NCBI GenBank assembly: GCA_017885605.1
Contig: JAFNFT010000071.1
Span: forward strand, 85,519 to 149,518
Source: Methanobacteriota archaeon
Lineage (GTDB): Archaea; Thermoplasmatota; E2; DHVEG-1
Length of the DNA stretch: 64,000 nucleotides
Direction of reading: 5' to 3'
Shown here piece after piece: positions 1,354 through 29,906 of the stretch. The notes below the pieces were generated by a model that did no database searches, was not told the origin of the DNA, and saw nothing but the letters and a program-made list of their open reading frames with translations. Position 1 is the first letter of the stretch, and every line of letters begins with the position of its first letter. A program made the position numbers and the translations under genes.

Positions 1354-3321
1354 TTGGCGGAGAATTTATCACTAAGATGTTTTGGATGGGGATATTTAAT
1401 GCAGAATGTTACTGACCTCGAGCAGCAGACAGAACGAACCGTTCAGGATGCTCGTGAATACGCTGGAAGCATTGTAGAGACGCTCCGAGAGCCTTTGATA
1501 GTGCTTGATGCTGACTTAAAAGTAATCTCAGCTAATCGTTCCTTTTACCAGACCTTTAAAACGAAACCCGAGGAGACTGAGGGGAAATTGGTCTACGACA
1601 TAGGTAATCAGCAATGGAATATTCCAAAGCTCCGAGAGCTTTTGGAGGAGATTTTACCCAAGAATACTTCTTTCGACAACTTTGAGGTTGAGCATGATTT
1701 TCCTCATCTTGGTAAACGAATAATGCTCTTGAATGCTCGATTGGTACCCCAGCCGCCAGCAAAACCCCGAATAATGCTTCTTGCTATTGAGGATATCACA
1801 GAACGCAAGCAGGTTGAACAAATAGCCAACGATGCTCGTGAATACGCTGAAAGCATTGTAGAGACGCTCCGAGAGCCTTTGATAGTGCTTGATGCTGACT
1901 TAAAAGTAATCTCAGCTAATCGTACTTTTTACCAGACCTTTAAAACGAAACCCGAGGAGACTGAGGGGAAATTGGTCTACGATATAGGTAACCAGCAATG
2001 GAATATTCCAAAGCTCCGAGAGCTTTTGGAGGAGATTTTACCCAAGAATACTTCTTTCGACAACTTTGAGGTTGAGCATGATTTTCCTCATCTTGGTAAA
2101 CGAATAATGCTCTTGAATGCTCGATTGTTACCCCAGCCGCCAGCAAAACCCCGAATAATGCTTCTTGCTATTGAGGATATCACAGAGCGTAAATGGGCGG
2201 AGGCGCTGAGGACTTCGGAGATCCGGTATCGTCGGCTCTTTGAGTCGGCCAAAGACGGAATTATAATCCTCGATGCTGAGACCGGGATGATTGTAGACGC
2301 GAATCCGTTCTTAATTGAGATGTTGGGTTACTCAAAAGAACAGTTCCTGGGAAAGTCAATCTGGGAAATGGGGCTTCTCAAGGGTATCGTCACCAACAAA
2401 GACAAATTCATGGAATTGCAACGACAGGAATATGTCCGCTACGAGGATTTGCCGCTGAAAACCGCCGATGGGCGCCGTATCGAGGTGGAGTTCGTCAGTA
2501 ACGTCTATGTAGTGGACCACCAGAAGGTAATCCAGTGCAACATCCGGGACATCACCGAACGTAAGCAGATGGAACATAAACTTAATGAAGCGTATCAAAA
2601 AATCAAAACACATACCAAGGAACTTGAGATGATCAACGAAAATCTGGACAGTTTTGCATATTCTGTCTCTCATGATCTTCGCACACCACTTCGGGCTATA
2701 AGTGGCTTCGCCCAAGTGTTAAAAGATACACACGGCGATAAAATCGACGAGGAGATGCGACATTATCTAAACAGAATTAGTGAAGGCGCTCAAAAAATGG
2801 GCCAATTAATCGATGATCTCCTCGGTTTCTCAAGGGCTACCCGGAGCGAGATAAAATATAAGACGATAAATGTTGAAAATATCGTTAATGATCTCGTAAA
2901 GGCATATCGTGATGTCGAACCGGATAGGGACATTGAATTTATTGTGAATCCATTAGGGGAAGTTGAAGCAGATAAAGAAATGCTAAAGGTTGTTTTTTCT
3001 AATCTTCTGCAAAATGCAGTTAAATTCACTATCGATCGGAAAAAGGCTCGTATTGAGATTGGAAGCGAGCAGAAAGAGGATCATATTCAATTTTATGTTA
3101 AAGATAACGGTATAGGTTTTGATATGAAATATAAAGATAAATTGTTCGTTGCCTTCCAGCGGATCCAAACAGATCAAAGGTTCACGGGTACTGGAATAGG
3201 TCTTACAACCGTGAAAAGGATAGTAACCAAACATGGCGGAAATATATGGGCCAATGGAGAGGTTGATAAAGGAGCAGAATTCTATTTTACTCTGCCTTCC
3301 AAGACGCATGTAAAAGATTGA
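1354..3321 (+). CDS. Cytoplasmic sensor histidine kinase with two tandem-duplicated PAS-like modules, a third PAS, HisKA and HATPase_c
   Basis: H-box VSHDLRTPLRAISGFAQVL and G-box region GTGIGLTTVKRIV...HGGNIWANGEVDKGAEFYFTLP. Three DITERK PAS linkers. No TM segment. Alternative start ATG at 1399. Confidence 0.9.
   Translation: MAENLSLRCFGWGYLMQNVTDLEQQTERTVQDAREYAGSIVETLREPLIVLDADLKVISANRSFYQTFKTKPEETEGKLVYDIGNQQWNIPKLRELLEEILPKNTSFDNFEVEHDFPHLGKRIMLLNARLVPQPPAKPRIMLLAIEDITERKQVEQIANDAREYAESIVETLREPLIVLDADLKVISANRTFYQTFKTKPEETEGKLVYDIGNQQWNIPKLRELLEEILPKNTSFDNFEVEHDFPHLGKRIMLLNARLLPQPPAKPRIMLLAIEDITERKWAEALRTSEIRYRRLFESAKDGIIILDAETGMIVDANPFLIEMLGYSKEQFLGKSIWEMGLLKGIVTNKDKFMELQRQEYVRYEDLPLKTADGRRIEVEFVSNVYVVDHQKVIQCNIRDITERKQMEHKLNEAYQKIKTHTKELEMINENLDSFAYSVSHDLRTPLRAISGFAQVLKDTHGDKIDEEMRHYLNRISEGAQKMGQLIDDLLGFSRATRSEIKYKTINVENIVNDLVKAYRDVEPDRDIEFIVNPLGEVEADKEMLKVVFSNLLQNAVKFTIDRKKARIEIGSEQKEDHIQFYVKDNGIGFDMKYKDKLFVAFQRIQTDQRFTGTGIGLTTVKRIVTKHGGNIWANGEVDKGAEFYFTLPSKTHVKD
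1447..2190 (+). repeat. Near-perfect tandem duplication, 384-bp unit x ~1.9, in frame, duplicating one 128-aa PAS-like module
   Basis: Copy 1 starts at 1447 (gatgctcgtgaatacgctggaagc) and copy 2 at 1831 (gatgctcgtgaatacgctgaaagc). I count only about six substitutions by eye over ~360 bp. The antisense ORFs 1556-1762 and 1940-2146 are near-identical shadows of it. Confidence 0.9.
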
Positions 3322-6574: not shown

Positions 6575-9500
6575 TTGGTGAAGGAGATGCAAAACAAAAA
6601 AAATCTCAATCAATTTTCCCAACAGCATCAGAGTGTTGTTCAAGAAGTTGAACAAATATTACAGGAAAAAAAATACGTCATACCACCTGAAAAACTACTA
6701 TCGCTTGATAATAATTTCCCATCTGCATTCAATGTTTCTTTTACGGGTATAAAAGAGTTTGATCAACTTCTTGATGGCGGATTTACTAAGGGTTCAATTA
6801 TCTTGCTTGCCGGATCATCAGGAAGCGGCAAAACTATCTTTTCCTTCCAATGGCTTTTTGAAGGAATTAAAAACAATGAAAATGGAATCTATATCACTCT
6901 TACAGAACCGCTTTTCAAAACCTTAGAAAATCTTGAAAAACTAAGTTTTTACAATAAAGAAGCTATAGAAAATGAAAAATTGAGAATCGTTGATCTGCGG
7001 AAGATATATGAAAAGGAAGGTTTTGACCAGCAAAAAATCCTCGATTTTATTGAAAACGAGGTCAAACGAACAAATGCAAAACGACTATGCATTGATTCGA
7101 TTACCGCTATCGCGTATCAGCTTGATGATAGGGCCAAGATTAGAGCTTTTATATTTGCTCTAGGTACGACACTTGCAACACTCGGTTGCACAACTGTTTT
7201 AACCAGTGAAGTTTCTGAAATGAATAAATACTCTAAGTACGAAGTCGAGGAATTTATATCTGATGCAATTTTACGATTTGATCAAATTAAAGAAAAAGAC
7301 GAACCACAAAGAATAATACAGATAATCAAAGTGAGAGGGAGAAACCATAGGTCAGATGACATTTATTTCAAAATTACAAAGGATGGCATCACCGTTTTTC
7401 CTAAACTCAGGATTCCGCTTGAACATTTTTCTACGACAGAACGGATCTCGATGGGCATTTCTACGCTGGATGACATGTTAGGCGGAGGTATTTTTGTTGG
7501 TTCTTCTACACTCATAACTGGTTCGCCTGGAACCGGAAAATCTACGTTGGGTTTAAGTTTCCTTGCTGAGGGATTGAAAAATGGGGAGATGTGCCTGTAT
7601 GTTGGATTCGAAGAAAGTAAGAAACAAGTATTAAGAAACGCCAAAAATTTTGGATGGGATTTCGAGAAGTCCGAAAGAAATGGTCTTCTTGTCATGCGAT
7701 GTATTTATCCGAACGAAAAGCATCTTGAAGAACATCTAGCAGATATAAGAAAAATAGTGGAAGAAAAAAAAATTAAAAGATGTGTTGTTGACCCTCTCTC
7801 TGCCATTTCGAGTGCGTTCTCACCGGATGCATTTATAAGTTTTTCAAAACGACTTAATGGATATTTGAAAACTCGTGAGGTGACTCCTTTATTTACATCA
7901 ACCACAAACTCGCTCATAGGCAATACAAAAGATGTAGATTCGCATATTTCTACGATATCAGATAATATTATCTTGTTGCGTTATGTTGAAATGCAAGGTG
8001 ATGTACAGTTTGTAATAAACATTATCAAAATGAGAGGGAGTGAGCATAGCAAAAATCTAAGAATGTACAACATAACAGATAAGGGCTTAGTCGTCGGTAA
8101 AAGTCTCGAAGGTTATGAAGGTGTTACAACTGGTGTCAGTAAAAAAATTGCTGAACTCGAGAAAGAAGGTTTGGAACTTAAGGAAGTTATCAAGCAGAAA
8201 GAAATGGCGGAAAAGGTTCTGCGAGAGAGCGAGGAGAAATTTAGATTATTGTTTAATGACTCTCCTTTAGGTATTGCACTGGTAGATCCAGAAGGAATCA
8301 TTAAAGAAGTAAACAGCAGCTTACTTCAGCTGTTATCAATACGAAAAGAAGAATTTATCGGTAAAAACTTTGTTCAATTAATCTCAGTTTATGGTTTAGA
8401 TGTCCAAGAGCAAACCTCAGATTTCAAAAACAGAATTGCCGGAAAACCATCAAAAAGTGAAATAACATTTTTATCTAAAGACAACAAGAAAGCGACGATG
8501 ACGGTACAGAGTTCGATTATTAAAAGTAACGATGTAATAATTGGTGTTCTCTTCATTTTAGAAGACATCACCGAGCGTAAGCGGGTGGAGGGTATGCTAA
8601 GTGAGACGAATCAATACCTCGAAAACCTATTCAACTATGCAAATGCTCCTATCATCGTCTGGGATGCACAATTCGCAATCACCCGTTTCAATCATGCCTT
8701 CGAATCGTTGACCGGCCGGAGCGTGAAAGATGTTATCGGAAAAACTCTTGAAATTCTCTTTCCCCCAGACCTGGTGGAAAGTTCAATGGAACTAATTCGA
8801 AAAACGCGGGAAGGGAAACAATGGGAGGTGGTCGAGATTGATGTTCTGCATCTCGATGGATCAAGGAGGACCGTCCTCTGGAACTCAGCCAACCTTTTCG
8901 CCCCAGACAGTAAGACTCTCATCGCCACAATTGCGCAAGGTCAAGATATCACCAAACGCAAGCGAGCACTGGACGAATTGAAGGTAGCTAATGAAAAACT
9001 TAATCAAATAAAATCAGATTTTTTCGAAGTGACAACTCGCGAAATAAGATCGCCGTTAACTACAATAAAAGGATATATGGAAATGTTGTCAAATCGAACC
9101 TTTGGTGAAATAAATGATGAGCAAAAAAAATATCTTGATATAATGTTACGGAATACAAATCAGCTTGACAACCTTGTATCAGATCTTGTGGGCATTTCAA
9201 GCATTGAATCAGGGGATATGACTTTTACTTTGAAAAAAACGAGTATTAGTAAGATGGTGAATGAAGCAGTTGAAAAAATACAGTCATCTGCAGATGTAAA
9301 AAACATTGCAGTCAATGTAGAAATAGAGGATCAAATACCTGATTTAATCGTTGACCAAGATCGGATAAAACAAGTCCTTATAGATATACTCGGGTACACA
9401 ATAAAATTCTCACCAGATAAAACTACGGTTAATATGCGCGCAAAAAAACAAGAAACCGATGTTTTATTCGAGATTCAAGACCAAGGATTGAATATACCAA

Positions 9501-9769
9501 AGGATAAACAGAAAAAGATTTTTAAGGCGTTTTACCGAGCTGAAGAAGGTAAAAGTAAAGAATACTTAGGAGGCGGTATTAGACTTGCACTATCACGAGG
9601 TATTATCACCATTCATGGCGGCAAGATGTGGGTAGAAAGCGAGGATGAAAAGGGAAGTACATTTAGATTTACACTGCCAATAAAACCAGTTGATAATATT
9701 CAAACAAGATATAAAGAATCTGACATATTCGAATCAAAAAAAGATGATGAAAACATTGAAATTAATTAA
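6575..9769 (+). CDS. Fusion protein: two KaiC/RecA-like ATPase domains + coiled coil + 2 PAS + HisKA + HATPase_c (KaiC-histidine kinase)
   Basis: Walker A LLAGSSGSGKTIF (domain 1) and LITGSPGTGKSTLG (domain 2), with KaiC-like FDQLLDGGFTKGS and LDDMLGGGIFVGS leaders. EDITERK PAS linkers. H-box TTREIRSPLTTIKGYMEML. G2 region GGGIRLALSRGIITIHGGKMWVESEDEKGSTFRFTLP. Listed start is GTG; ATG at 6587 is more likely. Confidence 0.85.
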   Translation: MVKEMQNKKNLNQFSQQHQSVVQEVEQILQEKKYVIPPEKLLSLDNNFPSAFNVSFTGIKEFDQLLDGGFTKGSIILLAGSSGSGKTIFSFQWLFEGIKNNENGIYITLTEPLFKTLENLEKLSFYNKEAIENEKLRIVDLRKIYEKEGFDQQKILDFIENEVKRTNAKRLCIDSITAIAYQLDDRAKIRAFIFALGTTLATLGCTTVLTSEVSEMNKYSKYEVEEFISDAILRFDQIKEKDEPQRIIQIIKVRGRNHRSDDIYFKITKDGITVFPKLRIPLEHFSTTERISMGISTLDDMLGGGIFVGSSTLITGSPGTGKSTLGLSFLAEGLKNGEMCLYVGFEESKKQVLRNAKNFGWDFEKSERNGLLVMRCIYPNEKHLEEHLADIRKIVEEKKIKRCVVDPLSAISSAFSPDAFISFSKRLNGYLKTREVTPLFTSTTNSLIGNTKDVDSHISTISDNIILLRYVEMQGDVQFVINIIKMRGSEHSKNLRMYNITDKGLVVGKSLEGYEGVTTGVSKKIAELEKEGLELKEVIKQKEMAEKVLRESEEKFRLLFNDSPLGIALVDPEGIIKEVNSSLLQLLSIRKEEFIGKNFVQLISVYGLDVQEQTSDFKNRIAGKPSKSEITFLSKDNKKATMTVQSSIIKSNDVIIGVLFILEDITERKRVEGMLSETNQYLENLFNYANAPIIVWDAQFAITRFNHAFESLTGRSVKDVIGKTLEILFPPDLVESSMELIRKTREGKQWEVVEIDVLHLDGSRRTVLWNSANLFAPDSKTLIATIAQGQDITKRKRALDELKVANEKLNQIKSDFFEVTTREIRSPLTTIKGYMEMLSNRTFGEINDEQKKYLDIMLRNTNQLDNLVSDLVGISSIESGDMTFTLKKTSISKMVNEAVEKIQSSADVKNIAVNVEIEDQIPDLIVDQDRIKQVLIDILGYTIKFSPDKTTVNMRAKKQETDVLFEIQDQGLNIPKDKQKKIFKAFYRAEEGKSKEYLGGGIRLALSRGIITIHGGKMWVESEDEKGSTFRFTLPIKPVDNIQTRYKESDIFESKKDDENIEIN

Positions 9770-9792
9770 AAAAAATTCCAATAAGTGATACC

Positions 9793-10380
9793 ATGTTAAA
9801 AGATGAAACAAAAAAATCTATTGAACAAGCAATACAAATGGACAAACATGGCGTCATAATTATGATAGAACTTCCAATAAATGCTTATTTTGAAATGAAT
9901 TCTTCCACCATTAAAATATTGACAAACCATGGTTTTCAAGGGATATACATTAGCTTTCAGAGACCGTTTAATAACATATCTTCCTTTTTTGAATCTGAGG
10001 GAATAGACACTAATACACTATTATTTATAGATGCTGCAACAGCCCTTTCCGGTGAAAAACAACATGAAGATGCTCGTTGTATACATGTCTCCCAAGAACT
10101 CGATATTGATGAACTGGTAAAAGCCATCTATCTTTCTCTGCCAAAGCTAAAAAGCCAAAAAAAGTTTATTTTTATCGATTCATTAACTACAATATCTCTT
10201 TACAAACCATTATCTCAAATAATGAGATTTTCAGAATTCCTGATGAGGACAGTACGTAAAGAAAACGAGGAAAATGTTATACTCATTTTTAACGTGGCAA
10301 AAGATCTCGCCCAAAAAAAATTTATCAGAGAGGTAGCCTTCCATGTGGACCAAGTAATAAGTGTGGATAATAATGAATGA
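9793..10380 (+). CDS. DUF835-like protein (paralog 3)
   Basis: GIYISFQRPFNNI...LLFIDAATALSG...KFIFIDSLTTISLYKPLSQIMRFSEFLMRTV...VILIFNV: same pattern as 3966. Starts 24 nt after the KaiC-histidine kinase stop. Confidence 0.45.
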   Translation: MLKDETKKSIEQAIQMDKHGVIIMIELPINAYFEMNSSTIKILTNHGFQGIYISFQRPFNNISSFFESEGIDTNTLLFIDAATALSGEKQHEDARCIHVSQELDIDELVKAIYLSLPKLKSQKKFIFIDSLTTISLYKPLSQIMRFSEFLMRTVRKENEENVILIFNVAKDLAQKKFIREVAFHVDQVISVDNNE

Positions 10381-10930
10381 TCTAGAAAAAATTTCTCAAG
10401 AATTAAACAATCTGCCAAAAGGCTGGATTGTAATGCTGGAAACTTCTCCAGAAAAAATGTTAGAGGTTTCTTTGTCAACGATAAAATTTTTATCTGATGA
10501 AAAAAACTACATTGGAATTATCGTATCAGCAAGCAGACCTCAAAAAAATTTGATACAACTCTACCAACAAAAAAAAATCGATATTAAAAAAATTCTCATT
10601 CTCGACTGTATCTCAAAAAGCCAGAGTTTGGACCTGGAGGAAGCGAGCAATGTTATATATCTTGAATCAGTATCTTCTCTTACAAATATTTCACTTGCAA
10701 TAACAGCGAGTATTCAACGAATACCGGGAGATAAATTTGTTTTTATTGACTCTATCAACAGCATGCTTATTCATAACAAACCTGAAGTTTTTGCTCAATT
10801 CATTCATGGGATTTTAACTAAGCTGAGAATTGGCGGGATAAACGGTTTACTTATTTCTCTAGAACATGAAACGAACAAAGAGATACATGCAGAAATTGCA
10901 CAACTGTGCGATCGGATTGTGAAAATATAA
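10361..10930 (+). CDS. DUF835-like protein (paralog 4)
   Basis: KFVFIDSINSMLIHNKPEVFAQFIHGILTKLRIGGINGLLISLEHETNKEIHAEIAQL is the strongest DUF835-type match of the four. Overlaps the upstream paralog by 20 nt and the downstream kaiC by 25 nt. Confidence 0.5.
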   Translation: MWIIMNDLEKISQELNNLPKGWIVMLETSPEKMLEVSLSTIKFLSDEKNYIGIIVSASRPQKNLIQLYQQKKIDIKKILILDCISKSQSLDLEEASNVIYLESVSSLTNISLAITASIQRIPGDKFVFIDSINSMLIHNKPEVFAQFIHGILTKLRIGGINGLLISLEHETNKEIHAEIAQLCDRIVKI

Positions 10931-11853
10931 TGGATGAAAAAAAGAGTAAACAAAGTAATATCTTTGACATGGCTAAAATCAAAGCAGAGATTGAGAATAA
11001 GCTAAAGGGTACTGATGACAAAGGTTATTCCACGGGAGGAACTTTAGAACAAAAAACGCAACAGTTGCATGAAACAAAAAATGAAGCTAAAACGGGAAAA
11101 AAATTTGTTTTAACAGGCGTTTCCGGATTTGATGAACTATTTGAAAATGGCATACCAAAAGGTTCCAATATTCTCGTTGCTGGAGGTGCAGGTTCAGGAA
11201 AAACAATTTTTTGTCTACAAACACTGTGGTACCATATCTTATGTGGGGAAAAATGTTTTTACATGAGTTTTGAAGAATCTGAAAAAAGATTAATGGAACA
11301 TATGGAGGATTTTGGTTGGAATCCAGAAAAACTTCTCGCATCAGGTAACTTTAAAATCAAGAGGTATCTACCGAGCGATATTCATTATGTATCTGAAAAA
11401 GGTAACGATAATGCAATGTTTGCTAAAGAAGAGGACAGTCAACTTTTACAGTTAGAGCCAGTAACTTTGGAAGAAGGATTTAATCCTGATTTTGTTGTCA
11501 TTGATTCACTTACGGCAATTGCCTCGGCATTTATGGGAAAAGAAGGTTCGTACAGGTTTTATGCTGAGCGACTCTTCAGGTTTTTTGAAAATATGGGGAG
11601 TACAAATTATTTTATAACAGAGACCGGACAGATGCCAGAAACTTTTTCACAGACCGGTGTTGAGGAGTTCTTAGCTGATGGGGTGATTGTTTTGTATAAT
11701 ATTAAACGAGAAAATATGCGGGAACGCGCTATAGAGGTTTTGAAAATGCGTGGTACAAAACATCAAGAGAGAATAGTTGCAATGAAAATTTCCGAAAAAG
11801 GTATGGTTGTGTATCCAAAACAGGAGATTTTTGGTGAGATTCACACTAAATAA
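10906..11853 (+). CDS. Single-domain KaiC-like (RecA superfamily) ATPase
   Basis: Walker A VAGGAGSGKTIFCLQ preceded by the KaiC-like GVSGFDELFENGIPKGSNIL. Walker B DFVVIDSLTAIAS. Confidence 0.8.
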   Translation: MRSDCENIMDEKKSKQSNIFDMAKIKAEIENKLKGTDDKGYSTGGTLEQKTQQLHETKNEAKTGKKFVLTGVSGFDELFENGIPKGSNILVAGGAGSGKTIFCLQTLWYHILCGEKCFYMSFEESEKRLMEHMEDFGWNPEKLLASGNFKIKRYLPSDIHYVSEKGNDNAMFAKEEDSQLLQLEPVTLEEGFNPDFVVIDSLTAIASAFMGKEGSYRFYAERLFRFFENMGSTNYFITETGQMPETFSQTGVEEFLADGVIVLYNIKRENMRERAIEVLKMRGTKHQERIVAMKISEKGMVVYPKQEIFGEIHTK

Positions 11854-24706: not shown

Positions 24707-24758
24707 ATTACCACCATATTCGTGAGTATTTTTTCTCTAAAGTATGAAGAATGGACTC

Positions 24759-27700
24759 CTACATTTCTCCTTTCAATTTTTCCTCCAATTCCGCTATTCT
24801 TTTTTTCAATTCAATCATTTTTAGTTCTCTATTTACTGTTAATTTTTTATATAGTTCAAGGGCATCAATTTCCTCCTTTAACTTTTTTTCAAGTTGTTTT
24901 TGCATGGTGATATCTCTGACAGTTGCCTGGAGAAATACCTTTCCACCCTGCACGACCCTTGATAAGAGCACCGTTGCGAAAAAATCCTCGCCATTGATTC
25001 GTTTGTGTGTCCACTCGAAGAATTTGGATCCATTGCGCATTGCTGTTTCAATCATCTCTTTAGCCTTCTCTGCTGAAGAACGTCCGTCTGGTTGGCGTTC
25101 GGGAGATAAATTCTCAGGTCCTTTGGAAGTGAATTCCTCTTCGTTCTTAACCTTGAACATTTCTAGTGTTGCCGGGTTTCCAGTTGTGAAATTCCAGGTC
25201 GGAGGCTCAAGGGTCATGATAGCGTCACGGGAGCTTTCAAAAAGAACCCGATGCCGTTCTTCACTATCCAGTAGCGCTTCCTCCGACCGCTTACGTTCGG
25301 TGATGTCTTTTGTTATAGCTACGAATGATAGTGGATTGCCAGAGGCATCTCTGATTAGGCACGCTGAAAGTTCTGCTGGAAACTCCTGACCGTCTTTCGT
25401 CAATAGGGTGTATTCTAAATTCTTTACCGATTCCGACTCAAGGGTTTCCTTTAAACTTTCTTTTGCCCTTTCGAGGTCTTTCGGTGAAAATAATTCTAAG
25501 GCATTTTTACCGATTAATTCCTTTTTATTAAAGCCATGCAACATTGATGTTGCTTGGTTACATTCGATAATGTTTCCATTTAGATCCGTGACGGTGATTG
25601 CGTCAGGAGATGAATCAAGTATTCGCCTTAGTTTTTCTGCGCTTTCAATGACTTCTTTTTCTGCCTTCTTGCGTTCGGTGATATCGGTGACCGTCCCAAT
25701 CCATCTGATGGGATGTCCGTCCGGCGTCCTTGCTACGGCGCCCCGCGCTGTCCACCACCGGCAGGTCCCATCTTTCGTTCGAACACGATATTCGATAGCA
25801 TAGGGCATGCGTTCGTCCAGATACGCCTGAACTGCAGCCGCAACGCGCTTCTTGTCCTCCGGATGGATCAAGTCCGTCCAAGCGTCAAATGTTCTCGGGA
25901 ACTCGCCTGGACCATAACCGAGCATCTCATCAATTTTTCCAAACCACTGAACGCTGTGTTGCAGGTCCCATTCGTACACCGCATCGTTTGAGGTCTCGGC
26001 GGCAATGCGAAAGCGTTCTTCTGTCTCGTGCAGTCTCTCCTCCATCCGCTTGCGCTCGGTGATATCTGCAAACGATGCCTCCATGCAGACTGGCTTACCA
26101 GCAGCATCCACTGTCATGCTTGCCGAAACCTGAACCTCAAAGAGAGCGCCATTCTTTCTATGAGCTACCAATTCCCCGATCCAACCTCCGCGAGTGCGCA
26201 ACGCATCTATGACTTCTGCTGCTTTTTCGCCCATCTGCCAGAATTCCGTAGCCGATTTCCTCAGTATTTCTGCTGAGGAACTATATCCCCACAACTTGAG
26301 AAATGCGGGATTCACATAGTTCAGGTTTCCCTGTAAGTCGGAGATTGCAATGGCGTTTATCGCCGATTCGATGACCCAATCCTTTACCCGCAGCGCCTCC
26401 TCCGCCTGCTTGCGCTCGGTGATGTCTCTTAGAATGCCCATCGTCCCTATTGGGTTACCCTTATCATCCTTGATAATAAAAGCAGATAAAATGGCAGGAA
26501 ATTTTTCCTTATTTTTTCTGATGTTTATTACGTCACCACTCCATCTCTCTTTCACAGCTATATCCTGCATAACTTTTTTGGCAACCATTGGATCGGCATC
26601 GAGTTCAGCTATGTTTAGCTTCAAGAATTCCTCAGAGGTATATCCAAATGCGCTGATAGCGGATTCATTTGCGTAAGTAATATTTCCCTTCACGTCAGTA
26701 AGCATAAAGCAATCAAAGGCGCTAGCGATAGCATCGGAAAATATCTTAATTTTCTCCTCTGCTTTCTTGCGCTCGGTGATGTCACGAGATATTGAAAGGA
26801 TCACGTGTTTCCCTGAAGCATCCTTCACAAGTTTCGCTGCGGTATCATAGATATGATACACACCTGATTTATCCCTTAGATGATATTCAAAACGAGAGCT
26901 CGTTCCTGGTTTATACATTCCAATGACTAATTGTTTTAACATGGAGGTAATACTTATCTTATCTTCAGGATGTAGTACGAAGAAACTATCTTGTCCAACC
27001 AGTTCATCAGGAGTATAACCTAACGATTTAATCGAGGGGCTCACATAACGAAAAGTTTTATCAATATTAGTGATAATTATCAGATCATTTGTATTTTCTG
27101 TAATCAACCGATACTTTTCTTGGCTCTCTATCAACGCTCCTTCTGCTTTCTTGCGCTCGGTGATGTCCCTTCCATATAAATTCACATATCCTTCGTCTGC
27201 TACGGGTGAAACGACAAATGAAAAGATTTTATCATTAATTTCTTCTTCTTCTTCTTCTGCTTTCAAATTCTTAGATACAAACTTTTTTCTGATTATGTTA
27301 CGCCATCGCTCTGGGACATCTTCTCCGATATTCGTTTTCCAAAAATCGAGTATCTGAAAACCCGCTTTATTACTATATACAACCTCACCATCCTTTTTAA
27401 TACGCAACACTGGATTAGGGTTCTCCGCTGGGAACTTTGCTAACCTTTTAATTTCTTCCTCTGCTTTCTTGCGCTCGGTGATATCCTGAAATACTATTCC
27501 TTGACTCCCTTCTTCTTCTGCTACTGTTTTTTTCACAACGAAGGAGCGAACATTAAAATCTTTTCCTCTAAATTTCAATTCCTTAGACCTACCATCTACT
27601 TGTAAAAGGTTTTCAAAAACAGCGAAAATCTCCGATGGTACCACATCTTTTAGATTCCTCGTGATATACTCATTTTTCGTTTCTCCAAACGCAGAAATAA

Positions 27701-29906
27701 AAGATTTGTTTACATACTCAATATGTTTTCCTTTCACAATCAATATCGGATTTGGATTACTTTCAAGAATATTCTCATTATAGTCTTTTAAATATCTAAT
27801 TTCTTCTTCTGCTATCTTCTGTACTGTAATATCTCTTGCAATTAATTGGATAGTTCTCTTCCCGCCAGGATGGATGATGGGGACATAAATATTTTGAAAA
27901 TATCGTCCTGCTCTTTCGTCCTCGTATTCTTGATTTTTCATTTCTTTAAGTGCCGTTCTGGCGATTTTTGCGCGTTCTTCAGCTATTTCTCTTGGAAGGA
28001 TATCAAAAATATTTTTACCAATTAACTTATCAGCTGGAACACCTATACTTTTTACCATCATTGGATTCATAGCTAGGATATTCCCTTTTTCATCAGTTTC
28101 AATGATTAAATCAGGAGACGAATCAAATAATCTTCTGAATTTTTCCTCAGATTCTTTTAATATTTGTTTCGCTTGCTTTTGTTCAGTAATGTTGTGCGCT
28201 ATCCCTTGAATAGCGTAGGGTTTTCCATCGCGATACACTTTCTCTGCAGTTGTTTCTATGTCGATAATCGTACCATTCTTTGTCTTCAGTCTGTATTCGG
28301 TCGATTCTTTTTGATGGCCATATTTTTTGATCTCGTTCAGCGCTTTCATTGCTTTCCATATTTGCCCGCCATCAAGTATTGAAGAAAAATTAAGCGAACC
28401 CAATTCTTCCTTACTGTAACCCAATAGTTTTAATGCCGTAGGATTCGCATCAATGAAATTTCCTTTGAGATCATGAAGATATACTAATTCAAATGAACTA
28501 TTAAATAACGCTTGATAACGTTCCTCGTTCTCCTTTGGGGTCGCGGTGATTTTTTCATGTTCTGTTATAGAACCAGATGCGTCTTCATCCGTTGTATCCG
28601 TTGTTACAGAATTCACAGCTAAGCCAACACTTTCCGCAGACGTATTCTCCGATGGCATCTCCTCCTTTAAATCTGTGTTATCCATATCGGAAATTGACTG
28701 AATGGGGAGCGTAAACAGAAATGTGCTACCGATGCCTTCTGTGCTCTCGAACCATATATTTCCACCGTGTAATCCTACAATACCTTTGGAGAGAGCAAGA
28801 CTAAGACCTACTCCACCAAACAGTCTATCATCACCAGAATCAGCCTGATAAAACGCATCAAAAATCATTCCCTGTTTATCCTTTGGTATGCCTTGTCCGA
28901 AATCCTGCACTTCAAACAAAACATCTTCCTTTTCTTTTCTTGTTTTTATATTTATTGTTGAACCATCTGGCGAGAACTTTATGGCATTGTCTACAAGGTT
29001 CAACAAAACTTGTTTAATCCGCTCACCATCAATCATCAAATCTGGAAGATCTTTTTCTAGATTAACATTAATTGTCATCTCTTTTTTATTCGCAAATGGT
29101 TCCATCGTTTTGGTTATTTCTTCCACGAGTGCTCTTGGATTTACTTTTCGTGGAATGAATTTCATACTCCCTGACTCCAAACTCGAAGCATCAAGGATAT
29201 TCTGGATTATCTGATCAAGACGATTTGTGTTACGCAAGATTACCTCAAGACCTTTCATCTGTCCTTCGTTAATTTCACCTAGAGTCTTTTTCATCAACAT
29301 CTGTACATATCCTTTTATGGACGTTATTGGAGTGCGTAATTCGTGGGACGTGGTTTTGAGAAAAGTTTTCTTGGTTTCATTTAGTTTTTGCAATTTTACA
29401 TTCTGCGACCAAAGATTTTTATTTAATTCATCATACATTTTATTAATTTCGGTAACATCCTTTAGTATAGATATGGAGTACAGAATCGCTCCATCAGCAC
29501 CTCTTACAGCACTTGCACTGAGCAACACTCTCCGTTTCTCCCCCTGTTTTGTCTCAATAACCATTTCTTCGTTATCTATTTCGCCGGTTTCTTTCCATTT
29601 GGAGAAGAGGATCTTCATCTTTTCATGGGATTCAGGAGCATAAATAGTGGTGAGATTTTTTCCTAGTAATTCCTCTTTTTTATAACCTAGATTCGTAAGC
29701 GCTGTTTTGTTTATTTCAAGAATTGTTCCTTCAGGCGAAACCATGTATTCATATAGCGGCGCGTTTTCAAAGAATTTTTTAAAACATGTATGTTCAAGGT
29801 TTTGATCAGAGGTATTATTTTTAGAGGATTCTTTTGATGAAGAAAAAAGTCTCCCATGTTTTTCTTCTTCTTTCAGTTCTTGAACAATTTCATAGTTATT
29901 CTTCAT
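24759..29906 (-). CDS. Giant cytoplasmic multi-PAS sensor histidine kinase (1715 aa): PAS1-HisKA-HATPase_c-acidic linker-10 further PAS domains-C-terminal coiled coil
   Basis: H-box TSHELRTPITSIKGYVQML and G-box GGVGLSLALSKGIVGLHGGNIWFEST lie at aa ~180-400. Eleven (D/N)IT(E/Q)(R/Q)K PAS junctions are counted along the protein. Confidence 0.9.
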   Translation of the reverse strand: MKNNYEIVQELKEEEKHGRLFSSSKESSKNNTSDQNLEHTCFKKFFENAPLYEYMVSPEGTILEINKTALTNLGYKKEELLGKNLTTIYAPESHEKMKILFSKWKETGEIDNEEMVIETKQGEKRRVLLSASAVRGADGAILYSISILKDVTEINKMYDELNKNLWSQNVKLQKLNETKKTFLKTTSHELRTPITSIKGYVQMLMKKTLGEINEGQMKGLEVILRNTNRLDQIIQNILDASSLESGSMKFIPRKVNPRALVEEITKTMEPFANKKEMTINVNLEKDLPDLMIDGERIKQVLLNLVDNAIKFSPDGSTINIKTRKEKEDVLFEVQDFGQGIPKDKQGMIFDAFYQADSGDDRLFGGVGLSLALSKGIVGLHGGNIWFESTEGIGSTFLFTLPIQSISDMDNTDLKEEMPSENTSAESVGLAVNSVTTDTTDEDASGSITEHEKITATPKENEERYQALFNSSFELVYLHDLKGNFIDANPTALKLLGYSKEELGSLNFSSILDGGQIWKAMKALNEIKKYGHQKESTEYRLKTKNGTIIDIETTAEKVYRDGKPYAIQGIAHNITEQKQAKQILKESEEKFRRLFDSSPDLIIETDEKGNILAMNPMMVKSIGVPADKLIGKNIFDILPREIAEERAKIARTALKEMKNQEYEDERAGRYFQNIYVPIIHPGGKRTIQLIARDITVQKIAEEEIRYLKDYNENILESNPNPILIVKGKHIEYVNKSFISAFGETKNEYITRNLKDVVPSEIFAVFENLLQVDGRSKELKFRGKDFNVRSFVVKKTVAEEEGSQGIVFQDITERKKAEEEIKRLAKFPAENPNPVLRIKKDGEVVYSNKAGFQILDFWKTNIGEDVPERWRNIIRKKFVSKNLKAEEEEEEINDKIFSFVVSPVADEGYVNLYGRDITERKKAEGALIESQEKYRLITENTNDLIIITNIDKTFRYVSPSIKSLGYTPDELVGQDSFFVLHPEDKISITSMLKQLVIGMYKPGTSSRFEYHLRDKSGVYHIYDTAAKLVKDASGKHVILSISRDITERKKAEEKIKIFSDAIASAFDCFMLTDVKGNITYANESAISAFGYTSEEFLKLNIAELDADPMVAKKVMQDIAVKERWSGDVINIRKNKEKFPAILSAFIIKDDKGNPIGTMGILRDITERKQAEEALRVKDWVIESAINAIAISDLQGNLNYVNPAFLKLWGYSSSAEILRKSATEFWQMGEKAAEVIDALRTRGGWIGELVAHRKNGALFEVQVSASMTVDAAGKPVCMEASFADITERKRMEERLHETEERFRIAAETSNDAVYEWDLQHSVQWFGKIDEMLGYGPGEFPRTFDAWTDLIHPEDKKRVAAAVQAYLDERMPYAIEYRVRTKDGTCRWWTARGAVARTPDGHPIRWIGTVTDITERKKAEKEVIESAEKLRRILDSSPDAITVTDLNGNIIECNQATSMLHGFNKKELIGKNALELFSPKDLERAKESLKETLESESVKNLEYTLLTKDGQEFPAELSACLIRDASGNPLSFVAITKDITERKRSEEALLDSEERHRVLFESSRDAIMTLEPPTWNFTTGNPATLEMFKVKNEEEFTSKGPENLSPERQPDGRSSAEKAKEMIETAMRNGSKFFEWTHKRINGEDFFATVLLSRVVQGGKVFLQATVRDITMQKQLEKKLKEEIDALELYKKLTVNRELKMIELKKRIAELEEKLKGEM

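Follow-up and report, generated by a model that had tools for sequence, protein, structure and literature searches.

Mosaic PAS array with probable foreign modules and a DNA-conserved DITERK joint in an archaeal sensor histidine kinase

Background

The tips of the CdiA toxins (at the VENN motif) and the Rhs toxins (at PxxxxDPxGL), as well as the target-recognition domains of hsdS, are swapped in frame at junctions that are conserved at the DNA level. For sensor proteins, Moglich, Ayers and Moffat are said to have engineered, in work of 2009, PAS/LOV-kinase chimeras fused at the DIT motif and the J-alpha linker. Here we analyze a multi-PAS sensor histidine kinase gene (positions 24759-29906, minus strand) in a stretch of 64,000 nucleotides from the archaeal contig JAFNFT010000071.1 (assembly GCA_017885605.1), the whole of which is referred to below as the window. 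As in the CdiA, Rhs and hsdS systems, we find a short junction, exchangeable modules and in-frame replacement that includes horizontally acquired cassettes; unlike in those systems, the exchanged units are sensor domains, arranged in tandem with many equivalent joints between them, and insertion, deletion and reordering are possible. As in the LOV-kinase chimeras, PAS domains can be swapped at a DIT(E)RK boundary with signal transmission kept, but in contrast to these laboratory constructs the swap appears to be natural and repeated, with conservation of the joint at the DNA level.

In lineage-specific expansions, sensor kinases reshuffle their PAS modules more quickly than the kinase core, and domains that have been rearranged may have distant origins (Alm, Huang and Arkin 2006, PMC1630713). 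Compared with that shuffling, the unit, the breakpoints, the DNA joint and the foreign composition can here be resolved base by base in orthologs that are nearly identical; in addition, the PAS array is C-terminal and not N-terminal to the kinase core. Sub-genic lateral transfer, in which gene fragments are recombined into resident genes, has also been described (Chan, Darling, Beiko and Ragan 2009, PMC2639706, PMC2817436), and the survey reported no preferential preservation of domain-coding regions as units of transfer (PMC2639706). The gene analyzed here differs in that whole domains are transferred, with breakpoints at a boundary motif. PAS shuffling and sub-genic transfer are known, and what is new is a tandem series of DNA-conserved joints with insertion, deletion and cross-domain exchange of whole modules.

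In our interpretation, the gene is probably a native multi-PAS kinase with a mosaic array, in which the modules PAS A and PAS B, and to a lesser extent module m11, are of foreign, GC-richer origin, entered separately, and were exchanged at a joint encoding DITERK. Below we describe the composition of the modules, the breakpoints, the polymorphism among orthologs, the similarity across domains of life and the direction of substitutions, and weigh the alternatives at each point.

The kinase gene and its modules

The gene is a single intact open reading frame (ORF) of 1715 aa, located in a window with a mean GC content of 36.3%. The Pfam domains of its product are arranged in the order N-terminal PAS, HisKA (aa 179-246, 61 bits), HATPase_c (aa 293-403, 97 bits), low-complexity linker, about ten PAS modules and a short C-terminal coiled coil. 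HisKA and HATPase_c, together with an H-box of the form HELRTP, identify a two-component sensor histidine kinase, and membership of the PAS superfamily is indicated by matches that exceed the curated gathering scores, to PAS_9 (PF13426, 396.6 bits over 9 stretches), PAS (PF00989, 320 bits) and PAS_3 (PF08447, 264.7 bits, with the best stretch, aa 1320-1406, corresponding to PAS B). A PAS_7 match at aa 1183-1290 corresponds to PAS A. The modules are divided by ten DIT(E/V/M)(R/Q)K motifs at aa 572, 692, 808, 914, 1042, 1161, 1281, 1408, 1534 and 1665. The domain order is unusual, with the catalytic core near the N-terminus and a ten-module PAS array behind it; a Ser/Thr/Asp/Glu-rich linker lies at about aa 404-455, and the soluble protein has no evident transmembrane segment. 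We use the following features of the gene, with GC content given as fractions and GC3 denoting GC at third codon positions.

28176-29906, minus strand: native core (NK), aa 1-577, with the N-terminal PAS, HisKA, HATPase_c and the first C-terminal PAS; GC 0.373, GC3 0.338, host-like
26409-28175, minus strand: modules m2-m6, aa 578-1166; AT-rich, GC 0.33-0.40
26409-26765, minus strand: module m6; AT-rich, copies 82-86% identical in nucleotides in bacterial contigs
26049-26408, minus strand: PAS A, aa 1167-1286; PAS_9/PAS type, GC 0.517, GC3 0.558
25668-26048, minus strand: PAS B, aa 1287-1413; PAS_3 type, GC 0.564, GC3 0.614
25290-25667, minus strand: module m10, aa 1414-1539; GC 0.397, GC3 0.357, host-like
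24897-25289, minus strand: module m11, aa 1540-1670; GC 0.476, GC3 0.473, compositionally atypical
24762-24896, minus strand: tail of the kinase gene (Ct)
26409-26426, minus strand: junction m6/A, GAC ATC ACC GAG CGC AAG (DITERK); upstream edge of the GC island and breakpoint
26049-26066, minus strand: junction A/B, GAT ATC ACC GAG CGC AAG; second breakpoint of the presence or absence of A
25668-25685, minus strand: junction B/m10, GAT ATC ACC GAA CGC AAG; downstream edge of the GC island, breakpoint in locus L002
25290-25307, minus strand: junction m10/m11, GAC ATC ACC GAA CGT AAG; breakpoint in L002
26766-26780, 27150-27164 and 27468-27482, minus strand: further exact copies of ATCACCGAGCGCAAG, between AT-rich modules

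A GC-rich island with edges at DITERK junctions

The initial annotation, made from the sequence alone, had pointed to a GC-rich segment at 25690-26430 with two PAS domains of biased amino acid composition, bounded by DITERK codons and flanked by AT-rich DNA. The GC content of this segment is 0.541, compared with a mean of 0.361 (sd 0.040, maximum 0.464) in 1148 windows of 741 nt outside the kinase gene, which corresponds to z = 4.6; the 53-mer quoted in the annotation was located at 25717, and its plus-strand motif positions are right. The edges agree as well. When the gene was searched by maximum-likelihood change points for its one best GC-elevated segment, the result was 25671-26447 (aa 1154-1412), with edges one codon from the B/m10 junction and seven codons from the m6/A junction. 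On the plus strand, CTTGCGCTCGGTGAT is found at 26049, 26409, 26766, 27150 and 27468, and in a form with one mismatch at 25668.

The amino acid bias was borne out for Ala (12.1 vs 6.6%), Trp (4.0 vs 0.4%) and Lys (4.9 vs 10.6%), whereas Arg, Gly, Asn and Ile deviate in the direction described but fall short of significance. Back-translation of each module with the codon usage found in the remaining long ORFs of the window gave an expected GC of 0.442 for A and 0.466 for B, compared with 0.35-0.38 for the native modules. The observed GC3 of 0.558 in A and 0.614 in B exceeds the expected 0.34-0.35, and the composition of the two modules (z = 4.6, GC3 0.56-0.61 against 0.33 in the host, or 0.326 to three decimals) is that of foreign DNA. 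In the native modules GC and GC3 are 0.33-0.40 and 0.25-0.42, respectively. Roughly half of the GC excess of A and B comes from their Ala- and Trp-rich, Lys-poor composition, and the remainder from codon usage.

Two points had been overlooked in the annotation: m11 is elevated as well (0.476/0.473), and m10, located between B and m11, is host-like. The implied purely native character of the flanks is not supported either, the AT-rich m6 being common to Omnitrophica and another bacterium at a synonymous divergence (dS) of about 0.4. Its relatives, with 82-86% nucleotide identity and dS of about 0.39-0.40, are carried by an Omnitrophica-labelled contig of a metagenome-assembled genome (L059, GC 0.415) and by a bacterial contig with leuB, asd and truA neighbours (L060, GC 0.47). 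Cross-domain exchange of PAS cassettes is thus not confined to GC-rich modules, and the GC-rich modules are merely those exchanges that composition reveals.

Three plus-strand ORFs (24751-25389, 25408-25803 and 26350-26676) cross the GC-rich modules and could be mis-called as genes. Overlapping antisense genes were considered as a cause of the high GC and rejected, as none of these ORFs has a Pfam match; they probably arise by chance from the GC-rich composition.

Module gain and loss among orthologs

Orthologs were collected from genome and metagenome scans and cut at the junction motifs, and the segments were matched to the modules of the window. The loci were found by their similarity to this kinase gene, and x and y stand for modules without a close counterpart in the window.

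Window: NK-m2-m3-m4-m5-m6-A-B-m10-m11-Ct
L014/L020: NK-m2-m5-m6-A-B-m10-x-x-Ct'
L005/L016: NK-m2-m5-m6-B-m10-Ct'
L015: ..m2-x-m6-B-m10-Ct'
L018/L019: NK-m2-m5-x-B-m10-Ct'
L017: ..x-B-m10-x-m11'-..
L002: ..B-m11-Ct
L041: NK-x-m10'-m3'-y-A'-Ct''

Modules A, m11, m3 and m4 are variable among these loci. PAS A is missing from L005/L016, L015, L017 and L018/L019, counted as five ortholog variants, all of which carry B. Among them, L005 is a syntenic relative with 87-93% nucleotide identity, a GTDB representative whose own record is labelled 'uncultured Thermoplasmatales archaeon'. The pair B-m10 is present in all but two of the tabulated loci: L002 is without m10, and L041 lacks B, with only a diverged m10' at another place in its array; neither A nor B occurs in the partial protein P0188 (m2-m6-m10). 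Module m11 is missing from L005, L015, L018 and L014, a diverged m11-type module is found in L017, and in L003 and L021 m11 is joined directly to an A-type module. Modules m3 and m4 are missing from the orthologs examined, apart from m3' in L041. Among close host relatives, patchiness was seen for A and m11 and not for B, which all ortholog variants that the nucleotide scans recovered as loci carry.

In the short contig L041, the kinase core is only 4.5% diverged from that of the window, yet the PAS array is wholly different. The NK tree also conflicts with the tree of B+m10. Based on these two observations, the PAS array turns over faster than the kinase core diverges.

The breakpoints of these changes could be placed at base level. 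L015 is identical to the window base for base through m6 and GACATCACCGAGCGCAAG, and continues base for base with PAS B; the same holds for L005. In L002, the identity moves from B to m11 within the same DITERK-coding motif. There are three independent cases (L005, L015 and L002) in which identity changes inside the DITERK-coding 18-mer, and where PAS A or neighbouring modules are missing in related archaeal contigs the breakpoints lie exactly within GAYATCACCGARCGCAAG. For each gain or loss of a module, BLAST tilings overlap by 26-39 nt only, at the junction. From these exact breakpoints and tilings, PAS A is a clean cassette of 360 nt (120 codons) between two direct junction repeats. For the absence of m3-m4 in L014, the breakpoint comes from BLAST tiling alone, and the upstream junction of the window at this place encodes DITVQK. 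The proposal of recombination at the conserved junction motif, already made in the initial annotation, is well supported by the gains and losses that break inside the 18-mer. In the preferred interpretation, the joint would also be the physical site of crossover, and not just the sole site that selection tolerates.

In L018 (8481-10012) and also in L019, about 1.45 kb of extra DNA lies behind the stop codon of the ortholog, followed by a remnant of the old tail (aa 6-32 of the window Ct) and then by the syntenic downstream kinase gene. This arrangement suggests that an insertion replaced the 3' end of the gene.

Conservation of the junction at the DNA level

An exact copy of ATCACCGAGCGCAAG is found at five junctions of the kinase gene, two more junctions differ from it by one or two bases, and four further near-matches are located in two other kinase genes of the window. 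Altogether there are 11 copies with no more than two mismatches, at 1795, 2551, 8567, 8948, 25290, 25668, 26049, 26409, 26766, 27150 and 27468, against 0.02 expected from shuffles. Regardless of the surrounding GC, ITERK is almost always encoded as ATC ACC GAR CGY AAG. The probability of the joint codon string under host usage is 2.7e-4, the host fractions of its codons being 0.24 (ATC), 0.20 (ACC), 0.33 (GAG), 0.06 (CGC) and 0.26 (AAG). In particular, AGR accounts for 49% of Arg codons in the host, compared with one of the 118 non-redundant ITERK motifs and none of the 40 in AT-rich context.

The joint is conserved as DNA, even between AT-equilibrated modules, to a degree that neither the protein motif nor host codon usage explains. 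Recombination or conversion events at the joint may be the cause, or else selection on the codons of invariant residues. A tentative extension, which we regard as possible but less than even in probability, is that the 15-18 nt encoding (D)ITERK serve as a recombination joint in both bacteria and archaea, giving access to a common pool of sensor modules in sediments, with the GC-rich codons being renewed by recombination or by selection for recombinability. PAS domains would then be cassettes that move horizontally and fit in frame into any multi-PAS protein, and the GC island would be no more than the clearest trace of such exchange.

Outside this group of genes, 43 nt of the junction and linker start match Sinorhizobium pSymB at 91%, and this was the only plasmid or phage match that we found to the cassette. 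No dedicated recombinase or orphan cassette arrays were seen, integrase and attC sites not having been specifically searched for, and a literature search on the DITERK motif returned nothing relevant.

Relatives of PAS A and PAS B

Relatives of PAS A with 79-87% nucleotide identity and dS of 0.31-0.64 were found in very different genomic backgrounds. The dS values were calculated by the NG86 method on alignments of about 120 codons, and the values below are to the A module of the window.

L003: contig GC 0.55, dS 0.31; DivIVA, YggS and M3-peptidase neighbours, cluster mate labelled candidate division Zixibacteria
L021: contig GC 0.375, dS 0.38
L031: contig GC 0.48, dS 0.45
L009: contig GC 0.41, dS 0.48; record labelled Rikenellaceae
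L004: contig GC 0.54, dS 0.57
L047: contig GC 0.62, dS 0.58
L034: contig GC 0.64, dS 0.64

For comparison, the dS of the native core between archaeal orthologs is 0.24-0.34. At synonymous sites, bacterial and archaeal copies of A are about as close as two species of the archaeal group, which requires a recent transfer.

Nearest relatives of low divergence outside the lineage were seen for A and not for B. The outside relatives of PAS B have 66-76% protein identity and saturated dS (1.1-2.4), several of them being located in Ignavibacteria-labelled or GC-rich contigs, and a closer donor was found neither in the protein database nor in the genome and metagenome collections. Among orthologs, the dS of PAS B is 0.09-0.21, similar to the neighbouring modules. 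The structure nearest to PAS B by sequence is 3mr0, a structural-genomics PAS domain (E-value 5.7e-21). We saw no LOV or other known cofactor motifs in A, in B or in the module at 2194-2565 described below. The ratio of nonsynonymous to synonymous divergence (dN/dS) in A and B is 0.15-0.33 (0.33 for A between the window and L014), from which we conclude that both modules are kept as proteins under purifying selection.

The initial annotation had both cassettes acquired from a GC-richer donor, and a version of this scenario, in which A and B came together as a two-module block from a single GC-rich donor and A was later deleted repeatedly between the junction repeats, is the most probable of the alternatives, albeit an unlikely one. 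The two modules lie side by side, and each is GC-rich. Loss of a module between 18-nt direct repeats with a spacing of 360 nt is easy in mechanistic terms, L015 being such a clean product, and the dS between the window and L014 is alike for A (0.146) and B (0.162). However, A is missing where B is present, and at least three independent losses of A would be needed on the kinase-core tree. The outside relatives of A are unsaturated in dS, while those of B are saturated. In addition, no non-orthologous protein combines a close A with a close B beside it, the close A-type modules being paired with m11-type or unrelated modules. This lack of adjacency outside the orthologs indicates that A and B differ in history, contrary to a single joint acquisition. 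The broader claim of horizontal import stands insofar as both cassettes look foreign and A has bacterial-type relatives, and falls short of a named donor.

Direction of transfer

In the A tree, the copies from AT-rich hosts (window and L014, L041 and L043, and L021) fall in one clade with L003, which pairs with L021 (97% support). L047, L034, L009, L031 and L004 form the sister clade, with cassette GC3 of 0.57-0.74. L003 was considered as the donor of PAS A and rejected, as it nests with the AT-host copies.

This nesting also favours a reversed flow, in which the modules would be native to the archaeal group and the bacteria would be recipients, and several further features of L003 point the same way. 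The GC content of its gene is below that of its host and falls to 0.35 at the 3' end, and its AT-rich tail, QKPRYEEV, is exactly that of the archaeal L015. The gene is also located just beyond a break of synteny with the sister strain L063 (92% identical over 7.7 kb). Similarly, in the L060/L061 set the m6-type modules of the bacterial L060 are AT-richer than their host. Nevertheless, the modules of the window are far from the composition of the archaeal host and are moving towards it, and the sister clade of A is made up of the above GC3-rich copies in hosts with GC of 0.41-0.64. Reversed flow accounts for individual bacterial copies, but not for the origin of the GC-rich state, and we regard it as an improbable explanation of the latter. 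The L003 gene itself, which lies 180 nt from the contig end, is more likely a recipient, or a contig-end join, rather than a donor.

In L003, the small stand-alone gene (10001-11209) has the structure A-m11-Ct, and in L063 a multi-PAS kinase of 1172 aa (8057-11575) is found at this place. The small gene could represent an archaeon-to-bacterium transfer or a mis-join at the contig end.

Direction of substitutions

Singleton substitutions were polarised by majority rule, with the following counts for changes from GC to AT (GC>AT) and from AT to GC (AT>GC).

NK: 119 GC>AT, 111 AT>GC; balanced
PAS B: 22 GC>AT, 7 AT>GC; p = 0.008, and p = 0.017 versus NK
PAS A in L041 (AT-rich host): 11 GC>AT, 1 AT>GC
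PAS A in L021 (AT-rich host): 8 GC>AT, 0 AT>GC
PAS A in L014 (AT-rich host): 8 GC>AT, 2 AT>GC
PAS A in L003 (GC-rich host): 9 GC>AT, 7 AT>GC; balanced

As tallied for the assessment of amelioration, the sum for PAS A in AT-rich hosts is 28:4. Sites fixed differently in the A clade and in its sister clade show the same direction: 15 are GC outside and AT inside, and four are the reverse. Both A and B are losing GC in AT-rich hosts, which fits a GC-richer source pool, and this bias counts against selection or GC-biased conversion keeping the GC content high.

The first of these two possibilities, that no transfer took place and that the island is intrinsic to Ala-, Trp- and Arg-rich PAS subtypes under codon-level selection (with translational accuracy or mRNA structure as possible targets), is to our judgment quite improbable. 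It draws on the host-codon expectation, which already gives A and B a GC of 0.44-0.47, on B-type modules with GC of 0.50-0.55 in several AT-rich hosts, and on the preference of the invariant Arg codons of the junction and the H-box for CGY. On the other hand, the GC3 of the modules is almost twice the host expectation, the GC>AT excess of 3:1 or more in AT-rich hosts indicates decay and not maintenance, and the GC3 of B-type modules is already down to 0.37-0.47 in other AT-rich hosts. Moreover, this explanation cannot account for the 79-87% nucleotide identity of A between the archaeon and bacterial-type contigs.

GC-biased gene conversion, by which the most-recombining modules would become GC-rich in place, finds some agreement in the junction, the presumed crossover point, being the most GC-conserved part even between AT-rich modules. 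However, the recent substitutions in A and B run GC>AT, opposite to the prediction, and m6 and m10 recombine too and yet are AT-rich; conversion was therefore rejected as the cause of the island and is very improbable for the module bodies, to which, and not to the 18-mer, this rejection applies. A metagenome assembly chimera joining GC-rich reads into the archaeal contig can be dismissed with near certainty: PAS junction repeats are prone to mis-joins and several related contigs end near such genes, but the reading frame is intact across four composition switches, and independent contigs carry the same arrangement, with an identical protein in the JGI contig Ga0494791_000089, m6-A-B-m10 at 92.6% nucleotide identity in L014 and L020 (two other samples), and B-m10 in another six contigs, which come from different samples and carry substitutions of their own.

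Proposed history of the array

To recapitulate the preferred interpretation, the soluble kinase would be native to an AT-rich (36% GC), uncultured euryarchaeote, and its C-terminal PAS array would be a mosaic of exchangeable modules. A, B and, less markedly, m11 would have a foreign, GC-richer origin, from module families that are mostly bacterial, and GC-rich bacteria are the probable source. The order of events may have been that A and B entered separately, B before the sampled ortholog lineages split, and that A entered, or re-spread, more recently than B. The in-frame joint would be the stretch coding for DITERK, where the PAS fold ends and the linker helix begins (GAY ATC ACC GAR CGY AAG), kept nearly identical in nucleotides across all modules and taxa. 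Recombination between two such joints would delete, insert or replace a whole module and leave frame and fold intact. After import, the AT-biased mutation pressure of the host would wear down the GC content, and the retained purifying selection suggests that the modules are working sensor domains.

Several points weigh against this interpretation. About half of the GC excess is explained by amino acids (host-codon expectation 0.44-0.47), the argument for a foreign origin of B is confined to composition and substitution bias, and B-type modules have a GC of about 0.5 in every host examined. No donor lineage for A or B was found in the protein, genome or metagenome collections, most metagenome contigs carry no taxonomic label, and the NG86 estimates of dS are imprecise, being based on about 120 codons each. 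As to the joint, the loci were recovered by similarity to the kinase gene, so that the motif counts are not independent, and the GC-rich codons of the junction could stem from selection that acts on the codons of invariant residues. In the H-box, the invariant Arg is likewise mostly encoded by CGY in AT-rich contexts (11/16), although the Thr codons of the H-box are host-like. Finally, selection on the fold alone would concentrate surviving breakpoints at domain boundaries, and the exact junction breakpoints are for this reason no proof that the junction is the crossover substrate.

The molecular route of domain shuffling in sensor kinases is rarely visible, and here related populations show module changes at one joint, with at least one type of PAS module exchanged recently between archaea and bacteria. 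If the joint is indeed the crossover substrate, it would explain the fast gain of new inputs by multi-PAS proteins. Domains, and not genes, would then be the unit of horizontal transfer for the multi-PAS class, the opposite of the conclusion reached in the survey (PMC2639706), and the joint would provide a natural rule for the engineering of chimeric sensors. Mosaic kinase genes of this kind will be misread by taxonomic binning and by methods that detect horizontal transfer at the level of whole genes.

Similar modules in other genes

Two other kinase genes of the window each contain one GC-island PAS module that is bounded by the same joint.

2194-2565, plus strand: GC-island PAS module in kinase gene 1354-3321; GC 0.51, GC3 0.67, DITERK junctions
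8582-8962, plus strand: GC-island PAS module in gene 6575-9769; GC 0.48, GC3 0.52, flanks 0.34-0.36, bounded by DITERK/DITKRK

Relatives of the 2194-2565 module, with 83% nucleotide identity and dS of 0.67, were found in contigs of GC 0.475-0.524, one of them beside CheB/CheR genes. This PAS subtype is widespread and highly conserved, with 1113 matches of 55-83% identity in many bacterial phyla.

Unrelated AT-rich contigs show the same pattern, with GC-island PAS cassettes between copies of this joint in L025 and L023, for example. In L025/L028 (host GC 0.34), the B-type module has a GC of 0.55 and GC3 of 0.62; in L023, the module has a GC of 0.52 in a host of 0.38, and L006 and L049 are alike. 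The L025 gene (5953-8427 in a 437-kb contig) encodes a multi-PAS protein with a single B-type module between DITERK junctions and flanks of GC 0.33.

The surroundings of the multi-PAS kinase gene in the window consist of kinases and surface proteins, among them pilus genes of the archaeal FlaI and FlaJ types and a KaiC-kinase fusion. Proteins that cluster with those of the window carry the label 'Euryarchaeota archaeon'. In the 6575-9769 gene, a double KaiC domain is joined to PAS, HisKA and HATPase_c.

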